IMG/VR virus record: IMGVR_UViG_3300033076_000817
Coordinates: 1 to 29,323 of that record
DNA length: 29,323 nt
Strand: one strand, 5' to 3'
From: a virus
Taxonomy: Duplodnaviria; Caudoviricetes
Part shown: positions 14,273 to 28,317 of the stretch, piece by piece
Numbering within the stretch: position 1 is the stretch's first letter
Layout of the letters: every line of letters starts with the position of its first letter
The notes under the pieces: generated by a model
What the model saw: the letters and a program-made list of their open reading frames with translations, nothing else
Databases searched by the model: none
Told to the model about the DNA's origin: nothing
Translations under genes and position numbers: made by a program

Positions 14273-15414
14273 TACTGAGGCACCGGAGCCAAGTTGGCAG
14301 GGGCTCGACCGTAGTAGGCGCGCTGCACTTCCCGACGCAAGGCTTCAACCACTGCTTCGCCCGTCGCGGCGGGGCTTGCCGCACCGTTGACCTCCACGGT
14401 GATCGTCGGGGAGTTGGTGACGGTCGTGCTGGCGGCGTAGGGGGCGAACGACGTGGGCCGAAAATTCCGAGTGCCCAACGGGTCAAGCTCCCGAGCCTTC
14501 GGCCCAATGCCGATAAGCCCGTTCAGGATTCCGACGATCTTGGTCAGCGCCGGAGCCAAGTCGCCGAGAATTTTCTCGGCCAACTGCTCAATGTTGAACT
14601 TCAACTCCTGCCACGCGGCGTTCAGTTTGACGATCGCCGCCTGCTGTTCATCGGTGGAGAGCCGGCCGGCGAGCGAGTCAATTTCGTCCCGGCGCGTGTG
14701 GAGGAACGCGGCGAAGTCCGCAGTGAACCCCAACATCTCGCCCCACATGACCGCTTGCTCCTTGGTCATGTAGCGCGTGCGTTCGCGGAATTGTTCAAAC
14801 AATTCCTCATCGTTGCGCGGAATGCCCCCGAACAGTTGGAGGAACGGCGTTGCCCCTTCTCCAGTGAGGAACGCGCGTTCGCGCTTCTGCGCCATCGTCT
14901 TGAACGCATTGGCCGCTTCCTCGCGGTTCAGTCCGGCCTTCATCACCGCCAACTCCCACTCCTTCAGGGTGCGGCGTCCGACACTCGTTTGGCGCGTGAA
15001 CAACTCGGTGTTCACCGCAGCGGTGAAGGCGTTCTTGGCGAGACTACTCAGGACGCCGATCAGCTTCTTGACCGCCAAAACCAGCGTTCCGATGCCGAGG
15101 ACTCGGGCGATGAACTGCCCCCAAGCCGCAGGGGGAGACCCGCCCCCTCCCGGCGGTTGACTTGGCTGCTGGGGGAACGCCGAAGGACCGGCGGGCGGCG
15201 TGCCGCCTCCGCCCCCTCCCGGCTGGTTCTGCGTTTGCGGCGTGAGAGCGCGGCGGAGGTTTTTCGGAATCTTGGCTGCTGCCAACTGCGCCAGAGCTTT
15301 GACGACATCCCGAGCTGCCGCGGCGATGTTGACCAACGACGTTTCGACAGCCTTCAGGTCGTCCTTACCCTCGATCTTGAATCCCAACTCGACGAATAGT
15401 TCTGCGATCTTCAT
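14272..15414 (-). CDS. Tape measure protein (short, 380 aa)
   Basis: Begins MKIAELFVELGFKI (typical TMP start), is largely helical and ends NSPTITVEVNGA. Follows the tail chaperones. Confidence 0.75.
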   Translation of the reverse strand: MKIAELFVELGFKIEGKDDLKAVETSLVNIAAAARDVVKALAQLAAAKIPKNLRRALTPQTQNQPGGGGGGTPPAGPSAFPQQPSQPPGGGGSPPAAWGQFIARVLGIGTLVLAVKKLIGVLSSLAKNAFTAAVNTELFTRQTSVGRRTLKEWELAVMKAGLNREEAANAFKTMAQKRERAFLTGEGATPFLQLFGGIPRNDEELFEQFRERTRYMTKEQAVMWGEMLGFTADFAAFLHTRRDEIDSLAGRLSTDEQQAAIVKLNAAWQELKFNIEQLAEKILGDLAPALTKIVGILNGLIGIGPKARELDPLGTRNFRPTSFAPYAASTTVTNSPTITVEVNGAASPAATGEAVVEALRREVQRAYYGRAPANLAPVPQ

Positions 15415-16003: not shown

Positions 16004-16022
16004 AAGGTGGTTGGGTCACAAA

Positions 16023-16098
16023 GCGCCGAGCGGGACCACCATTGGCGAGATGGGGATGATGCCTATGACCCCGCAGCACCCTCCTTCCCGCTCGGCGC
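16023..16098. other. Intergenic 13-bp perfect inverted repeat enclosing 50 nt (structured RNA element or attenuator)
   Basis: GCGCCGAGCGGGA (16023-16035) pairs with TCCCGCTCGGCGC (16086-16098), filling most of the tube-chaperone intergenic gap. Confidence 0.65.
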
Positions 16099-16104
16099 CA
16101 GGTG

Positions 16105-20109: not shown

Positions 20110-21237
20110 TCAGGCGTTGTATTGGAACAGGAGCGTTTCGAGCGGCTTGTAGAAGCCGACGCCGGTCAACTGGCAGTAGGCGACGTCCTGGAAGTTGAAG
20201 TTGTCCATGCTGTTCGGCTGGGTGACGGTGAAGTCAACCGGCAGGTCGGCGCGGAGGGCCTTCGCGTCATACTTGTAGAGCGCGTAGGTGTATTTGTTGA
20301 TGCCGCGAAGCGAGTTCGAGGTGTCGGCGTCGCAGTAGGCATTGCCGACGATCTGGAAGTTCGGGTTGCCCGTCGCCGCCTTGAAGGCGTTCTCCAGGTA
20401 GGTGAGCATCGGCACCGGGAACGTGCCTGCGGAGCCCGGCGTGAGCACCTGAAGCCCGAGGTAGTCGGACATCGGAATGACGAAATGCGTGGGCATCGTC
20501 GTCTTGTTGGTGTTCACCCAGTAGGCGTTGATGAGGCCGGCGACGAACGTCTTGAAGTCCGCGGCGCTGAGACCATTGATCGGGGCCGTGATGAGCGACG
20601 TGTTGATGTTGGTCTGGGTGTTAACCAGCAGACCTTCCATGTTGCCGCTCTTGGTGCCCATGAACCAGATGAGCTGGAGACCGAGCTGGAACTTCTTGTG
20701 CCGGGCTTCGTGCTTGGCGGCGATGATGTCCCAGTTGGAGGCGACGAGGGCCTGCTCGATTTCGGCGAGGTTGTATTGGACCATGTCGTCCCAGATGAAG
20801 GTCGGGACGGAGATGGAATCCATCGACACCGTGGAGCCGGTGAGGCGGGCGTTGTGGGAGCCCTGACGGACGAGGCCAGCCTCGAAGTCGCCGGCATTCT
20901 GATAGACGCGGCGGGTGAGGATGTTGCCGGCCCACGCGCCATCGCCCACGGCGACGGGGATGAAGTCGGAGGGCTTGCGACCACCAAGCTCGTAGTAAGT
21001 CTGGGTAGACTCCTGCTGCTTGATGTAGGTCATCGTGTCGATGAGGATTTGGTAGCCCGTGGCGTTCTCGGGGCCGGTCGCCGCCGCGTTGAGGCGGAGG
21101 TCCAGACCGTGGGCGGGGTCGCCGTTCACGAACAGGGACTTGCCCGCCGTGTGGCGATTGGACAGGAAGATCGGCTCGCGCTCCTCGACGCCGGCACTGT
21201 TGAGACGGCCGGTGTTGCGGAAAAGGACGGATTTCAT
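20110..21237 (-). CDS. Major capsid protein (DUF2184-like, HK97 fold)
   Basis: 375 aa with FIPVAVGDGAW, QYNLAEIEQA, WFMG...GLL, PTHFVIP and TGVGFYKP motifs. Strongest codon bias in the window. Confidence 0.9.
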   Translation of the reverse strand: MKSVLFRNTGRLNSAGVEEREPIFLSNRHTAGKSLFVNGDPAHGLDLRLNAAATGPENATGYQILIDTMTYIKQQESTQTYYELGGRKPSDFIPVAVGDGAWAGNILTRRVYQNAGDFEAGLVRQGSHNARLTGSTVSMDSISVPTFIWDDMVQYNLAEIEQALVASNWDIIAAKHEARHKKFQLGLQLIWFMGTKSGNMEGLLVNTQTNINTSLITAPINGLSAADFKTFVAGLINAYWVNTNKTTMPTHFVIPMSDYLGLQVLTPGSAGTFPVPMLTYLENAFKAATGNPNFQIVGNAYCDADTSNSLRGINKYTYALYKYDAKALRADLPVDFTVTQPNSMDNFNFQDVAYCQLTGVGFYKPLETLLFQYNA

Positions 21238-22774: not shown

Positions 22775-23772
22775 TCGGAGAAGGTGAAGATGGGGCGTGC
22801 TACGCAACGGCAAGGCCCATAGTCCTCGCCGGGATGCCGGCGCCGGCCGGTCGCGGAGTCAACCACCGGAGGCTCGTTCCACGAAAACGTGCGGCCATCA
22901 AGGGAACGGTGGTCGTTGCTTTCTCCGTGAGTGGGTCGGACTTTTTCGTCTCCGGCAGTTTGCCAGACGTAGCGGGTGCTGCCGAGTTCCTGATAGCGAC
23001 GTTGGCGAAACCGGGAGACGAGGATCGACGTTTCGGCGTCGGCGATGATGCGGGCTTTGCGCTGGGCAACGCCGAATTCGACCTCGATGATCTTGGCGAG
23101 GCGATCGGTGCGGGCACCACCTGAAAGGTTTTCCTGGACTCGGGCACGTAGCTTGCGGGCGGTTTCTTCGGTGAAGTTCTTGATCGCGAAGTCCGTTTGC
23201 GCGGCGACTTCCTGAACCAACTCCGTCTTCAATCCCTCGGGGACTGGCGTCGGTTTGGGTAGTTCAGGGACCGCCGCAACGGTCTTCACGAACTGTGCCT
23301 GCGCGTCTTTGATGATTATGTCAACAGCCTTCGCGTAAGGGATGCCCGGCGACGCTTTCGGGGCGTTGCCGATCAGCGCGGCAAGGAATGCCAGCACCTC
23401 CTCATGAGTCTCCTTGCCGCGACGCAACGACGTTGCAATAGCGCCGCGAATCTGGATCGGGATGTCGCCTTGCGCGATGGCGAATCCGTCTCCACGCCGA
23501 GTGGCGCCGATGGCCCGAAGCGCCTTGCTGATCGCGGCGTTGAACTTCCCCGAGAACACGCCGTCCGCATACCAGATGGTGCCGGCCATGAGCGCGGCCC
23601 AAAGCACAGAATAGTCGTCGTCGTCCGTCGGAGCGGCGTTTTCCCGCTGAATGCGCGACGTAATTTCGCGGAGCGGATCAAACAGCACCTCGCGAAAATA
23701 CGACATCACCTCGTTTTCGAGGACTGCCGTGTAGCCGTCTTTGTGGACGACCGGCTCAACCGTGATCTTCAC
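22771..23772 (-). CDS. Head morphogenesis protein (Mu gpF / SPP1 gp7 family)
   Basis: KARIIADAET, YVWQTAGDEKVRPTH, LDGRTFSW, HPGEDYGPCRCVARP motifs. GTG start 23772 by GTGA overlap. Confidence 0.9.
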   Translation of the reverse strand: MKITVEPVVHKDGYTAVLENEVMSYFREVLFDPLREITSRIQRENAAPTDDDDYSVLWAALMAGTIWYADGVFSGKFNAAISKALRAIGATRRGDGFAIAQGDIPIQIRGAIATSLRRGKETHEEVLAFLAALIGNAPKASPGIPYAKAVDIIIKDAQAQFVKTVAAVPELPKPTPVPEGLKTELVQEVAAQTDFAIKNFTEETARKLRARVQENLSGGARTDRLAKIIEVEFGVAQRKARIIADAETSILVSRFRQRRYQELGSTRYVWQTAGDEKVRPTHGESNDHRSLDGRTFSWNEPPVVDSATGRRRHPGEDYGPCRCVARPIFTFSE

Positions 23773-25223
23773 TTCTCCGCCTTGGCCGGTTTCTCTTTGG
23801 CCTTCGCCTCGGCCTGTTCCTTTTGCGCGGCGAGAGCCTTGTCCGACGGATCGCCTTGGTTCGGCAGCGTGGGCTCCACGTCGCGGAGACCTTGCGAAAC
23901 CTCGGTGTCGATAGGCAACAACCCTTCGGTGCGAAGGAGAGTGCTTGCCTCGCGGCCGGTGACGAGGCGATCGCGGAACATTTCGAGGATACGAGCCTGC
24001 TTCGACGTCAGGACTTTCTCCTGCTCCACGCCGTCCAACACGCGAAGCGGTTGCCAGACGATTTCGTAGTCGGGGATGAAGCCGAACAACTGCTGGCACC
24101 GCAGGTCCACCACCTCGGTCACGAGCGGCTCGGCGTCCGTGCGGACCCCCTCAACAATGGAGTTGTAGTTCTCCAGTGCGTCCTCGCCGCCGCCGAAACC
24201 TGTGGCGCTCTCTCCGAACAGCTTGTTCATCGGAATCTTCAATGCCGACGAGAGGTTGAGCCGGAGCTGCTGCCAAATCTCGGCAAGGCCGGACCAAGTG
24301 ATCTGCTTCTGGTCGTATTCGTCCTCCTTGTCCATCGCGAGGGCATTCTGGAAGTTCTTCAACTGGTTCGACAGTTGGATGCGCCGCTGGGTGTTCGCGG
24401 TGCCGTCCTCGGTAAGCAACGAGTCGTTGAACCCTTGGATGCGGTAGACGTCGATCTTGGCCTCGTCCAGAAGCTCGAAGATCAAAGACTCGAATTTGAC
24501 GAAGGCGTTGATCGGCCGGATGCACCGCTCGATTTCGCTCATGCCCCAACCCTGGAGACGAAGGCGGATGTAGGACGGCGCCTCAACCCCCGAGACCTTC
24601 ACGACGCGGGAGTAGTGGATGGGCAGACCGTAGAAGTTGTAGGGAACCGGATTGCTCGTGTTGTAGACGTTGGTCTGCGACAGGATCAGTTCCCAGCGGT
24701 CGGCGGCGATGAACTCCAGCGGCGACTCGGGGGTGATGGCGTCCACGTCCAGCTCCGACGAATAGTTCTGGTTCGTGTTGATGATGAGGCCGGCGCCGCC
24801 GTAGAGCCGCGACCAATTCAGCGTGTCCATGATGACTCGCAGGTCGGAGTTGCCGAGGTTGATCGCCGCGTTCGGGTTCACCTTGCGGGCGAGCTTGCGC
24901 GTCGCAGCGTCCCGCTTGCGCGACCGGCGGAGGGTGTTGAGGAGGAGCGTCAGGTCCGCGTCGTCGAGTTCGGACGACTTGATCTGGATGCCGCCGCGGA
25001 AAGCGTCGTTCACCGGCTGGGTGATGACCGTCTGGATCAACCCCTGCGTCATGTAGGCGTAGGAGAGGAGAATCCGGTTCAGCGACAACGGCGTGTAGCT
25101 GTTGTTCAGCGACAGCGGGAAAGGCGACGACAGGGTGGTGGACCAGCCGGGGCCGACCGGCGCGACTTGGTTCACGAGGTCGATCAGGCTGTTCATACGG
25201 GCTGTGTCGGGGGCGGCTACCAT
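23769..25223 (-). CDS. Portal protein (DUF1073-like)
   Basis: WSRLYGGAG, IHYSRV, GWGMS, IPMNKLFGES..G..G motifs. ATG 25223 is preferred because TTG 25259 coincides with a -35 box. Confidence 0.9.
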   Translation of the reverse strand: MVAAPDTARMNSLIDLVNQVAPVGPGWSTTLSSPFPLSLNNSYTPLSLNRILLSYAYMTQGLIQTVITQPVNDAFRGGIQIKSSELDDADLTLLLNTLRRSRKRDAATRKLARKVNPNAAINLGNSDLRVIMDTLNWSRLYGGAGLIINTNQNYSSELDVDAITPESPLEFIAADRWELILSQTNVYNTSNPVPYNFYGLPIHYSRVVKVSGVEAPSYIRLRLQGWGMSEIERCIRPINAFVKFESLIFELLDEAKIDVYRIQGFNDSLLTEDGTANTQRRIQLSNQLKNFQNALAMDKEDEYDQKQITWSGLAEIWQQLRLNLSSALKIPMNKLFGESATGFGGGEDALENYNSIVEGVRTDAEPLVTEVVDLRCQQLFGFIPDYEIVWQPLRVLDGVEQEKVLTSKQARILEMFRDRLVTGREASTLLRTEGLLPIDTEVSQGLRDVEPTLPNQGDPSDKALAAQKEQAEAKAKEKPAKAEK

Positions 25224-25259
25224 GCCGCCGCTTGTGCCAACGTCGAACGGGAGGTGCAA
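25224..25259 (-). promoter_or_regulatory. Putative leaderless sigma70-type promoter for the portal/head operon
   Basis: TTGCAC-17 nt-(TGn)CACAAG-7 nt-ATG, the same geometry as the promoter at 29235-29270. Confidence 0.5.
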
Positions 25260-25309: not shown

Positions 25310-26005
25310 ATGACCCGTGATCCCAAGAAAGTGTTCATCGGCGTGTGCCTGCGCTCGGGCGACGTCCGGTGGGAAACGTTCATGTCGCTGTTCCAGGAGG
25401 CGTTGACCGCTCTTCCCGGATACAGCTTTGTCATCAAACCCGGCGGCGGCTGCGATGTCGCCCATGCCCGGAACCTCCTCCTCCACGACTGGCGCACCCG
25501 CACCGACTGCGGGCGGCTGGTCTGGATCGACTCCGACGTGGTGTGGGGCGACCAGTTGAAGCGGTTGCTGGCGTGGGACGTGCCCTACGTCGGCGGTCTC
25601 TACCCGCTGAAGGGGGTGCAATGCCGCTGGAGCTGGAACGGCTGGGCCAAGCCGTCCGCACAGACGCCCGGCCTGTGGTCCGTGGAAGAGCTTTGCACCG
25701 GCTTTACCTCCATGCGCTACGATCTGCTGGAGGAGCTGATCCGCGCCTACGGCGGGCACACGAAATACGCGATCGAAGACAACGCCTATCGGGGCGAGCA
25801 AGGGTTCGAGCTGTGCTCGATGGGGCCAATGCGCGGCACCGACCGGCGCCTACCGGAAGACTTCATGCTGACGCGGCGCATCCGCGCCCTCGGCTACGAG
25901 GCCAACGTGGACCCCACGATCCTCGTCGGCCATGTGGGTTCGGTGGACCTGCTGGAGATGCACCGAGCGCACAGCACGTTCGCACCTCCGGCGCTGACGC
26001 CGTAA
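25310..26005 (+). CDS. GT-A fold (GT2-like) glycosyltransferase
   Basis: VAHARN, LVWIDSD (DxD), VGGLYPLK, TGF, EDFMLTRR...GHVG motifs. ATG 25310 is the likely start. Antisense to the flanking packaging genes. Confidence 0.8.
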   Translation: MTRDPKKVFIGVCLRSGDVRWETFMSLFQEALTALPGYSFVIKPGGGCDVAHARNLLLHDWRTRTDCGRLVWIDSDVVWGDQLKRLLAWDVPYVGGLYPLKGVQCRWSWNGWAKPSAQTPGLWSVEELCTGFTSMRYDLLEELIRAYGGHTKYAIEDNAYRGEQGFELCSMGPMRGTDRRLPEDFMLTRRIRALGYEANVDPTILVGHVGSVDLLEMHRAHSTFAPPALTP

Positions 26006-26010
26006 ATGGC

Positions 26011-26046
26011 AAAGCCCCGTCACCGAAACAAGATGACGGGGCTTTT
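26011..26046. terminator. Bidirectional intrinsic terminator
   Basis: AAAGCCCCGTCA-N11-TGACGGGGCTTTT, with A/T tracts on both sides, between the convergent glycosyltransferase gene and the RNA array. Confidence 0.85.
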
Positions 26047-26086
26047 AGTTTAGCGACGTTGCGGTCGTGGGCGTAATCGCCGCAGT

Positions 26087-26163
26087 TGGCGGAACCTCCA
26101 CAGCTAGACGGGTTAGGTCAGTTCTGTTTCTATACGGTGCGGGTAAGGCACCGTGGAGGCTCC
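26087..26163 (-). ncRNA. tRNA-mimic hairpin RNA unit 4 (77 nt, ends G-CCA)
   Basis: 5' GGAGCCUCCACGG pairs with CUGUGGAGGUUCC, followed by GCCA. An internal 7-bp hairpin ACGGUGC/GCACCGU competes with the inner end of that helix. Confidence 0.6.
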
Positions 26164-26166
26164 AAA

Positions 26167-26231
26167 TGGTTCAATGCCCGGTTGGTTTTGTGTTGTTGGT
26201 TGCTTCATCCAAAGAACACGCCGGGCATTGA
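26167..26231 (-). ncRNA. tRNA-mimic hairpin RNA unit 3 (65 nt, ends A-CCA)
   Basis: UCAAUGCCCGG/CCGGGCAUUGA perfect helix followed by ACCA. Inner helices GUGUU/AACAC and UUGG/CCAA. Confidence 0.6.
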
Positions 26232-26234
26232 AAG

Positions 26235-26316
26235 TGGCGGGAGCGTCGGCCTTTCATCCGACATCACGGAGGCGACGACCTCTTGCGACGTATCCTAGTT
26301 CTTAGACGAACTCCCG
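26235..26316 (-). ncRNA. Cloverleaf-like tRNA-mimic unit 2 (about 81 nt, ends G-CCA; non-canonical anticodon and T arms)
   Basis: Acceptor (C)GGGAGU/GCUCCC(G)-CCA, D-like arm GUCU-AAGAACUA-GGAU, T-like stem GUCGG/CCGAC with loop AUGAAAGG. No UUCRA and no regular anticodon loop. Confidence 0.6.
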
Positions 26317-26321
26317 AAAAT

Positions 26322-26390
26322 TTGCGCCGCCGCCTCGTTTCTCCTCATCGCGTAACCCTAGTCTTCAGCACTTTTCCCCGAGGCGGCGGC
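26322..26390 (-). ncRNA. Hairpin RNA unit 1 (69 nt, ends G-CAA)
   Basis: Perfect 12-bp helix GCCGCCGCCUCG/CGAGGCGGCGGC followed by GCAA and a U tract. Confidence 0.5.
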
Positions 26391-26409
26391 TAGGCAAAGA
26401 ACGACTGCG

Positions 26410-26444
26410 ACGCGGACAAAGACAGATTGTGTCCTCGCTGTCAA
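26410..26444 (-). promoter_or_regulatory. Putative promoter of the RNA array
   Basis: Consensus TTGACA (26444-26439, overlapping the terL stop codon), then GC and GAGGACACAATCTGTC, 16/16 identical to 803-818. Confidence 0.65.
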
Positions 26445-27877
26445 GCCCCCATCGCGGCTTTGCGCTGCATCGCCTGCGCGATCTTCACTTTCGCCCGCGG
26501 CCCCTTGTCCTCCGCACCGATGACGTTGAGGATGCTGGTGCCCTTGCCCAGAAGCAGCGTCACGCCGTCCGCAAAGCAGTCGGTCTGGTCGTCCTGCTTG
26601 CTCTTGCCGTCCTTGCGGAACTGCGCGACCTCGGCCTCGAACGTCTGAAGCCACGGCGCTCCGCGGGGCAACCAGACCATGCCGGTCGCCTGATACGGCA
26701 ACGCCTCCATGACGCGCGTGACCTTGTCCTTGGTGCGCACGATGCCGCGGGCGGGGATGCCTTTCTTGCGCATCTCCGCGATCAGGGTCGTGCCGGCGGA
26801 CGCCTCCTCCACCGCCACGTAGCCGACCGGCGACGCGGATTTGTGGTGCTTATCGTAGAACTGCTTCGCGTTCTTGATGAGCTGCGCCGGCTCCCACTTG
26901 CCGCGAATCTGGTCCAGGAGGAACGCCCGCTTGAGACTGCGGCCCCAGCACTGGAGGACCGAGTGGTCGTTCGCCGTCTTGGCCTTCATGGCGGTGTCGC
27001 ACACGATGATCTTGTGCTCGATCTTCGGCGGCTGTCCGTGGGGGTAATACTGGAAGTCGGCGAGCTTGATGAGATTGCCGCCGAGCACGACCGGCTCCTG
27101 CTGATACTGCGCCGCGAACGCGAACGGGTTCACGCGCTCGGTGTCCAGCAGCGACTTCGTGGTGACGGTCTCGGGGATCGTGCTCTCGCCGTTCTCCATC
27201 GCGGCGAACTTGATGTGCTCCACGTCGTCGCCGTATTCGGACAGCAGGAAGCCCGACAGGTCGTCTGTATCCAGCCGTTGCATACAGACCACGATCGGCG
27301 TCCACTGCGAACTGTTGCGACGGCTCTTGAGCGTGTTCTCGAACCAGAACCGGAGCTTGTCCGACTCCACGCGCGAGAGGGCTTCGTCGGGCTTGCTCGG
27401 GTCGTCGATGACGATGCAGCCGCCGGCACGGCGTTTGAGCCCCGCGCCCACGCCCGTCAGCGACCCGCCGACGCCGTCGCCGTAGACCTTGCCGCCTTGG
27501 AGCGTGGTAAAGTGGTCCGCCTGCCGGATGGCGCCCAAGCGGGAGCCGAACAGCTTCACATACCACTCCGACCCCTCGACCTCCTGGATGTAGCGCACCG
27601 ACGACTTGGCGAGGTCGTTCGAGTAGCTGGTGTAGATGAACTGCGCGTCGGGGAAGAAGGCGTGCATCCAACTGATGCTCGCCTCCATGATCTTCGTCTT
27701 CCCCACGCGCGGCGGGATGTTGATGACAACGAAGCTCTTCTTCAGGTCGCCGAGGAGCGCCTTCTGCATGACGTCGCACGCTCCCTTGTGCAGCGGCTTG
27801 ACCGGTAACTGGAGCCGCTGGAACGGCACGAAGCAGTCGCGGAAGTAGTCGAACAGCGGGAGGACTTCGGCGCTCAT
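26441..27877 (-). CDS. terL: Terminase large subunit
   Basis: Walker A INIPPRVGKT, Walker B IVIDDP, MQRL..DDL, AQYQQEP and nuclease residues CDTA...DDQTD. ATG 27877 by ATGA overlap. Confidence 0.95.
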   Translation of the reverse strand: MSAEVLPLFDYFRDCFVPFQRLQLPVKPLHKGACDVMQKALLGDLKKSFVVINIPPRVGKTKIMEASISWMHAFFPDAQFIYTSYSNDLAKSSVRYIQEVEGSEWYVKLFGSRLGAIRQADHFTTLQGGKVYGDGVGGSLTGVGAGLKRRAGGCIVIDDPSKPDEALSRVESDKLRFWFENTLKSRRNSSQWTPIVVCMQRLDTDDLSGFLLSEYGDDVEHIKFAAMENGESTIPETVTTKSLLDTERVNPFAFAAQYQQEPVVLGGNLIKLADFQYYPHGQPPKIEHKIIVCDTAMKAKTANDHSVLQCWGRSLKRAFLLDQIRGKWEPAQLIKNAKQFYDKHHKSASPVGYVAVEEASAGTTLIAEMRKKGIPARGIVRTKDKVTRVMEALPYQATGMVWLPRGAPWLQTFEAEVAQFRKDGKSKQDDQTDCFADGVTLLLGKGTSILNVIGAEDKGPRAKVKIAQAMQRKAAMGA

Positions 27878-28317
27878 GGCTGGGGGACAGCTCGGCAGCG
27901 GAGTTTGGACGCCCGGTGCTTCTCGCTGCATTCGGAGCAGCGTGTCGTCTCCGCATCGTTCACCCGGCGACATTGGACACAACGCCCGGCTTCTATCAGC
28001 CGCAGACGGGCTTCCTTGGCTTGGGCTTTCGCATCCTCGCGACACGAATGACAAAGCGTCTTGGTCTCAAGCGGGTTCTTCCCGCACGTTCCACACCGAC
28101 CCGCTTCCAGGTTCGCGATGTATCGTTCCCGAAGTCGTGCGCTGTGCTTGGCGCTACATTCGGCGCATTGCCATGTGGGGGCTCCTTCGTTGTGCCAGAA
28201 ACGCGAAAGTTTCGCCTGAGACGATTTCCCGCAGTGGGCGCAAAACCCTGCCGCGTGGTTTCGGTCCTTCAACTCCCGCGCACGCAACACCGAAAGCGAT
28301 TTGTCCGCGTAAGGCAT
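27874..28317 (-). CDS. Cys-rich protein with three tandem zinc-finger-like repeats
   Basis: Three GxCxxC...CxxC units, each followed by a basic helix. Sits between terS and terL. Confidence 0.7.
   Translation of the reverse strand: MPYADKSLSVLRARELKDRNHAAGFCAHCGKSSQAKLSRFWHNEGAPTWQCAECSAKHSARLRERYIANLEAGRCGTCGKNPLETKTLCHSCREDAKAQAKEARLRLIEAGRCVQCRRVNDAETTRCSECSEKHRASKLRCRAVPQP

Follow-up and report, generated by a model that had tools for sequence, protein, structure and literature searches.

What might an uncultured phage transcribe from the minus strand just downstream of its terminase gene, and what would the resulting RNAs be for? The window analyzed here is a whole virus record of 29,323 bases and carries the head and contractile-tail module of the phage; in 50,697 named phage records, its terminase (terL) finds no relative above 37%. 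On the sequence comparisons described below, we read the locus as a phage operon of non-coding RNAs that is real, conserved, and modular, contains new RNA families, and belongs to a known but unexplained kind.

Architecture and Setting of the Array

The array comprises four units (Table 1) separated by the spacers AUUUUC (units 1–2), CUU (units 2–3), and UUU (units 3–4). All four had been proposed in a first-pass annotation, and their coordinates, helices, tails, and spacers were found again; of the lengths of 65–82 nt given there, the lower end holds and the upper does not, the actual range being 65–81 nt. The 9-bp pairing proposed between the two flanks is also present, with one G-U pair. 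The two hairpins of unit 4 carry 7-nt loops, CUUACCC and CUAACCC. Folding z-scores are −2.6, −1.6, −4.3, and −5.3 for units 1 to 4, respectively, and −5.6 for the whole region. A detector for a helix followed by NCCA finds three units within the 340-nt array; among 1000 dinucleotide shuffles it finds none in 990, one in 10, and more than one in 0, and the remaining contig has 7 scattered matches over both strands.

Table 1. Positions of the Array, Its Leader, and the Neighboring Genes in the Window
Feature	Position	Strand	Description or basis
−35 hexamer TTGACA, putative promoter, overlaps terL stop	26439..26444	−	sequence
Leader arm, can pair (9 bp) with 26078-26086	26404..26412	−	pairing only
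boxA-type antitermination element GTTCTTT	26396..26402	−	5 nt before unit 1
Unit 1 (family A)	26322..26390	−	12-bp closing helix; GGGG in a purine-rich loop; tail GCAA
Unit 2	26235..26315	−	6-bp acceptor and 5-bp T-like stem, tail GCCA; remodeled tRNA; exchangeable slot
Unit 3 (family C)	26167..26231	−	11-bp helix, A/C-rich loop, tail ACCA
Unit 4	26087..26163	−	77 nt; 11-bp helix (extendable to 14), two hairpins, tail GCCA
14-bp hairpin, likely bidirectional terminator common to array and convergent gene	26011..26045	both	fold
Terminase large subunit (terL)	26441..27886	−	phrog_38 E 9e-85, PF17289; start codon uncertain
Convergent glycosyltransferase-like gene	25310..26005	+	phrog_1574; weak 2c0n match E 0.05; leads from an atlas
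Portal protein	23769..25259	−	phrog_146, PF06381

The array had been placed between the terminase and the portal. It does follow terL, but the convergent glycosyltransferase-like gene intervenes before the portal and has a hairpin in common with the array. This gene occurs beside intervals with and without arrays, as a neighbor and not as a fixed partner. No Cas family was found among the 36 window ORFs scanned. Elsewhere in the window, positions 16022–16099, between the tail tube and tail chaperone genes, can form two hairpins enclosed by a 14-bp closing helix, with an NCCA end on the plus strand. The starts of structural genes (for example at 21237, 20022, and 16003) are mostly C/A-rich, lack a Shine-Dalgarno motif, and look like the A/C-rich loop of unit 3.

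The first-pass annotation also reported a TTGACA promoter and an intrinsic terminator. The hexamer and the hairpin are there, the latter with a U tail that is clear on the plus strand and weak on the minus strand, but neither the array promoter, which lacks a consensus −10, nor the terminator on the minus strand is called by a sigma-70 scan, so that we treat both as putative. What that annotation had missed is the GTTCTTT of the leader (26402-26396), a second copy of which lies inside unit 3 (26217-26211). The leader copy stands 4–5 nt upstream of the unit-1 helix in 7/7 arrays (the window and six relatives). Among relatives of an Opitutae metagenome-assembled genome (MAG), GTTCTTT occurs no more than 420 nt upstream of 16S in 12/12 genes, right behind the proximal promoter in 11 of these leaders; from its position and the boxA consensus, we take it to be the boxA of these genomes. 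Several rRNA promoters of the Opitutae relatives have TTGAC followed 21–22 nt on by GTCCGC, a spacing that the window reproduces within 1 nt. With a boxA soon after the putative promoter of an untranslated RNA, the leader is, as judged from its sequence, of the rrn antitermination type. boxA is described as nucleating Nus antitermination on rRNA and as preceding CRISPR arrays (PMC8632103; 10.1101/2020.06.17.157628). Leader patterns were also scanned for in viral contigs, where all 16 matches were attributable to chance.

An Opitutae bacterium is the likely host, as weakly indicated by sequence. One close relative of the phage lies in an Opitutae MAG and two lie in Fimbriimonas and Gammaproteobacteria MAGs; a transfer-messenger RNA (tmRNA) from a homologous array (locus L008, below) scores 161–174 against four Opitutae-related tmRNAs and 158 and 134 against two others. 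The Fimbriimonas MAG has closely spaced clusters of lower-scoring tRNAs (L274 and L275; G002:C385 and G002:C36), perhaps phage tRNA arrays.

How far do the units resemble tRNAs? ARAGORN finds no tRNA in the window, and Rfam, run with both gathering and E-value thresholds, returns nothing below E 0.67; these were among the checks proposed in the first-pass annotation, and neither an ordinary tRNA nor an Rfam family was matched. The contig and the array-bearing loci contain no tRNA gene and a single tmRNA, that of L008. A canonical anticodon arm and a canonical T loop are missing from every window unit. Units 2–4 do combine a helix of acceptor/T length with a discriminator base and CCA; unit 1 ends in GCAA. 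Whole-unit similarity to a set of 58 tRNAs falls inside the shuffle range, with no tRNA similarity for units 1, 3, and 4. Unit 2, on the evidence of its sequence, is a remodeled Glu/Gln-type tRNA: its D arm best matches tRNA-Glu and tRNA-Gln among the 58 (1/1000 shuffles, for a stretch picked after viewing), it has a closed anticodon arm and an altered T loop, and ARAGORN calls exactly 26315-26235 only at a relaxed threshold (-ps80).

Homologous Arrays and Whole-Unit Exchange

Homologs were sought with terL, the portal, and the neighbor protein, which gave 57 dereplicated terL-portal intervals. By eye, five of these (L007, L008, L035, L133, and L148) have the same array layout, and a model built from the window and these five, applied to 98 sources, recovered one further member that had been held out (L009/L022, E 3e-4). 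A blastn search against the 50,697 phage records gave no match. A terL profile search over 401 genomes matched G001 alone, and model R1, run without a positive control, had no match in the family of G001 (137 genomes). Arrays do not cluster significantly on a quick portal tree (97/500 shuffles). Pattern scans of viral contigs gave no match for the unit-3 stem and six for family C, of which five were chance and the sixth was the known L008 contig.

The closing helix of family A, which comprises the homologs of unit 1, has changed on both sides in 9 of its 11 pairs, a number reached in 0/500 shuffles and compared with 2–5 in slid controls. The helix thus covaries across these terL-portal intervals, the kind of region in which the first-pass annotation had suggested looking for covariation; a repeat with the held-out member used an alignment fitted to the model and is biased toward it. 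GGGG occurs in 6/7 family A loops (reached in 51/5000 shuffles), and the seven tails read GCAA, GAAA, GAAA, ACCA, GACA, GAAC, and GAUC. In L133 and L008, the homologs of unit 3 keep the A/C-rich loop and have no CCA. The L008 array has about eight units, with a true tmRNA in slot 2 (96 bits), the one genuine Rfam hit. Together with the covariation, this tmRNA supports the earlier description of a polycistronic non-coding unit of tRNA-ended structured RNAs that match no Rfam family. Among 19 hand-delimited units, a 10–14-bp helix is present in 15, a purine follows in 18, and NCCA is encoded in 5, so that the helix and the purine, together with U-rich spacers, are conserved and CCA is not; the count omits the mis-delimited L008 tmRNA and four units of family D (below), and boundaries outside the window were drawn by hand.

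Several further observations were made at these loci. The L008 array spans L008:4627-5480, and its tmRNA escapes ARAGORN. Family D is a second small-RNA family in the same interval (L001:4635-4706, L006:2437-2508, L009:1611-1666, and L010:5600-5664); it is cloverleaf-like, has the ends GAGGG...CCCUC, lacks CCA and an Rfam match, and differs between L001 and L006 by paired changes. A hairpin of 12 bp, standing alone and capped by a GGGGAA loop, separates the portal start from a site resembling a promoter at L041:3903-3934, and also in L043 and L135; GGGGAA is likewise present in families A and D. Two larger units (L148:495-659, 169 nt, and L008:4997-5106, 114 nt) have the word GTTTGCGGAGCC in common and no Rfam match. 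At L036:509-1060, a terL stretch on the strand opposite the portal suggests an inversion or a misassembly.

The closest relatives come from public runs, of which 6 of the 19 listed were compared, all as contigs. Unit 4 of run X4 differs from that of the window at 13 positions and keeps GCCA. The changes amount to four compensatory pairs, one G-U to G-C exchange, one broken pair, and two unpaired positions, with pair 1 inverted and pair 4 changed; four such pairs arise in only 2/200000 random placements. This result comes from one contig at depth 3, and X5 repeats one of the pairs. X3 omits 26236-26315 and with it all of unit 2 up to and including the CC of its tail. X3, X7, and X17 diverge from the window just past the CCA of unit 3, and unit 4 is absent there. 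Slot 2 is occupied by other sequences in X4, X17, and X7; in X7, 30 letters are visible, in which a hairpin of 5 bp is followed by a strand resembling an acceptor and then by U and CCA. Units are lost or replaced whole in X3, X4, X7, and X17, and therefore come and go as wholes. Unit 3 is nearly invariant in five runs, although the genes around it diverge by several percent. One of the runs, X17, is an RNA library of depth about 2; since its unit-3 contig is accompanied by contigs of neighboring genes, it may be DNA and is left out as evidence of expression.

Possible Roles of the Units

Considered together, these data lead us to lean toward a model in which an antiterminated operon would supply stable accessory RNAs cut out by the tRNA-processing enzymes of the host; the tRNA-like end would be a handle, and the payload would lie in the loops. 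Host RNA polymerase would start at the rRNA-like promoter, and Nus factors recruited to boxA would block the action of Rho on the untranslated array RNA. RNase P would cut 5′ of each 11–12-bp helix, and cleavage within the U-rich spacers, together with trimming at the 3′ side, would complete the unit ends. RNase P is described as opening polycistronic tRNA precursors and also substrates that are not tRNAs, C4 among them (PMC2190699, PMC4919922, PMC5320573). Since RCCA aids the bacterial enzyme (PMC4919922), the processing route of the 14/19 units that lack it is uncertain. The tRNA-like end may act as a generic handle for release and stability, so that a newly acquired RNA with such an end could join the row. 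We assign the end to the handle and the loops to the payload because helix length, the purine, and loop features persist, and CCA and the acceptor pairs do not: the GGGG of family A, the A/C-rich loop of family C, and both hairpins of unit 4 are retained where CCA is not. By analogy with P1 C4 RNA, the loops would probably bind RNA or protein of the host or of rival phages, and the fast turnover of units would reflect conflict with either.

Searches for such targets were made at several levels. In the 29-kb contig, no unit has an antisense match longer than 11 nt, and the best, at 10–11 nt, are at chance level. Unit 4 has no C4-type target pair in this incomplete contig, where a lone minus-strand 7-mer lies at 15370. 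Against RNase P, tmRNA, 6S, and 16S RNA of the host, the best identity of a unit loop is 12 nt, about chance for the comparisons made. Within the window array there is no significant loop-loop match, and kissing between units 1 and 4 is no better than in shuffles (p 0.49). Two other candidates were set aside: a CsrB/RsmZ-type sponge (GGA is not enriched, 1829/5000 shuffles; CsrA occurs in 1/61 and Hfq in 0/61 genomes searched), and a hammerhead in unit 1, which by eye and against the hammerhead consensus has CUGAnGA and GAAA and lacks the UH cleavage site.

The chief rival, a tentative reading that we consider possible but hardly probable, places the function in the ends: abundant acceptor/T-helix plus NCCA decoys would titrate immune effectors of the host directed at tRNA ends, and a missing CCA would be added after trimming. 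The helix of the units has the length of the acceptor-T stack. RCCA is encoded by three of the four window units and is retained in the closest relatives (unit 4 in X4, unit 3, and the different slot-2 unit of X7), which fits a CCA-dependent role and weighs against loops as payload. Rapid cassette turnover would suit an arms race. Cas12a3 is described as cutting the 3′ CCA of tRNA and as accepting minimal stem-plus-CCA substrates, although with 62-fold weaker binding of the minimal substrate (PMC12851939). However, CCA is encoded in just 1/7 members of family A, 1/3 of family C, and 2/15 units outside the window, which also leaves NCCA unsupported as the defining feature that the first-pass annotation had made of it, and a decoy would not need large loops with kept motifs or compensated inner hairpins. 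A mixed reading, to which we give the same limited credence, is a counter-defense island of unrelated RNA cassettes with a tRNA-like release handle, in which some units would be tRNA-end decoys and others would act through binding loops. If the units do counter host immunity, phage counter-defense would extend beyond proteins to RNA cassettes that can be exchanged. Because single units are deleted or swapped in nature, the helix, the CCA, and the loop are separately testable.

It is unlikely that the array is the remnant of a phage tRNA/tmRNA operon, decaying or now neutral. The origin of unit 2 in a Glu/Gln-type tRNA, the tmRNA of L008, and the many relatives without an array would agree with this, but units 1, 3, and 4 combine compensatory change with a lack of tRNA likeness, which disfavors it for these units, and unit 3 has stayed almost constant over five runs despite the divergence of its neighbors.

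Charging by host synthetases, which would make the RNAs aminoacyl donors outside the ribosome, appears very unlikely. Three units end in RCCA, the end of unit 4 resembles those of tRNA-Ser in the 58-tRNA set, and unit 1 of L035 has G3-U70, the alanine signal, with ACCA. The altered acceptor of unit 4 in X4 nevertheless argues against specific aminoacylation, the acceptor pairs of family A vary freely, and no transferase gene is linked to the array. An Asp identity for unit 4, whose ends had been likened earlier to those of E. coli tRNA-Asp, is likewise unsupported, given the inverted pair 1 and the tRNA set itself, in which 0/3 tRNA-Asp start with GGAGC.

The remaining proposal of the first-pass annotation, packaging-associated RNAs, here taken as an RNA working with terminase and portal in the style of phi29 pRNA, is the least credible: the array lies directly behind terL in 7/7 cases and units 1 and 7 of L008 have a perfect 11-nt complement (0/200 shuffles), but array content varies unit by unit, the window array has no significant loop-loop match, and close relatives without an array argue against it. 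Of the 15 relatives, after dereplication, whose terL is 60% or more identical, 6 have family A and 9 lack it, L026, L100, and L150 having no array at all from terL to portal.

Relation to Known Systems

A literature search, in which most subscription papers lay outside coverage, turned up no account of an array of this kind. The locus yields at least three RNA families without an Rfam match, and its order of promoter, boxA, closed helix, and U-rich spacer offers a search signature for further arrays. Phage tRNA/tmRNA operons are the same kind of polycistron, given the tmRNA in a homologous array and the tRNA-derived unit 2, but no unit in the window has the canonical anticodon arm or T loop of their tRNAs. 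The leaders of bacterial rrn operons and CRISPR arrays, as described, likewise set boxA ahead of a long untranslated RNA (PMC8632103; 10.1101/2020.06.17.157628); here, in contrast, boxA leads unrelated structured phage RNAs without repeats.

Unit 4 resembles the C4 antisense RNA of P1/P7, which is described as an RNA of about 77 nt with a closing helix and two loops that RNase P frees from a precursor (PMC5320573); in both, the closing helix encloses two loop-bearing hairpins. The two have no sequence match, and no Rfam C4 is among four hits at E up to 5. The targets of C4 flank it within the same transcript, ahead of icd-ant, whereas unit 4 has neither a target pair in the contig nor a gene behind it in the presumed transcript. 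Closest in kind are the species 1 and 2 stable RNAs of T4 (rnaC/rnaD), which are also phage encoded, back to back, and non-tRNA with tRNA-like 3′ parts, and to which the sources, as far as they describe them, assign no known function (PMC9697503; PMC12685909). Their sequences are not similar to those of the window units (local scores p 0.12–0.99, within the shuffle range), and they trail eight real tRNAs, whereas the window operon has no tRNA, a boxA leader of its own, and swapped units. For the T4 stable non-tRNA RNAs, still without a known function, the locus thus provides the same design in a tRNA-free, boxA-led, and modular form.
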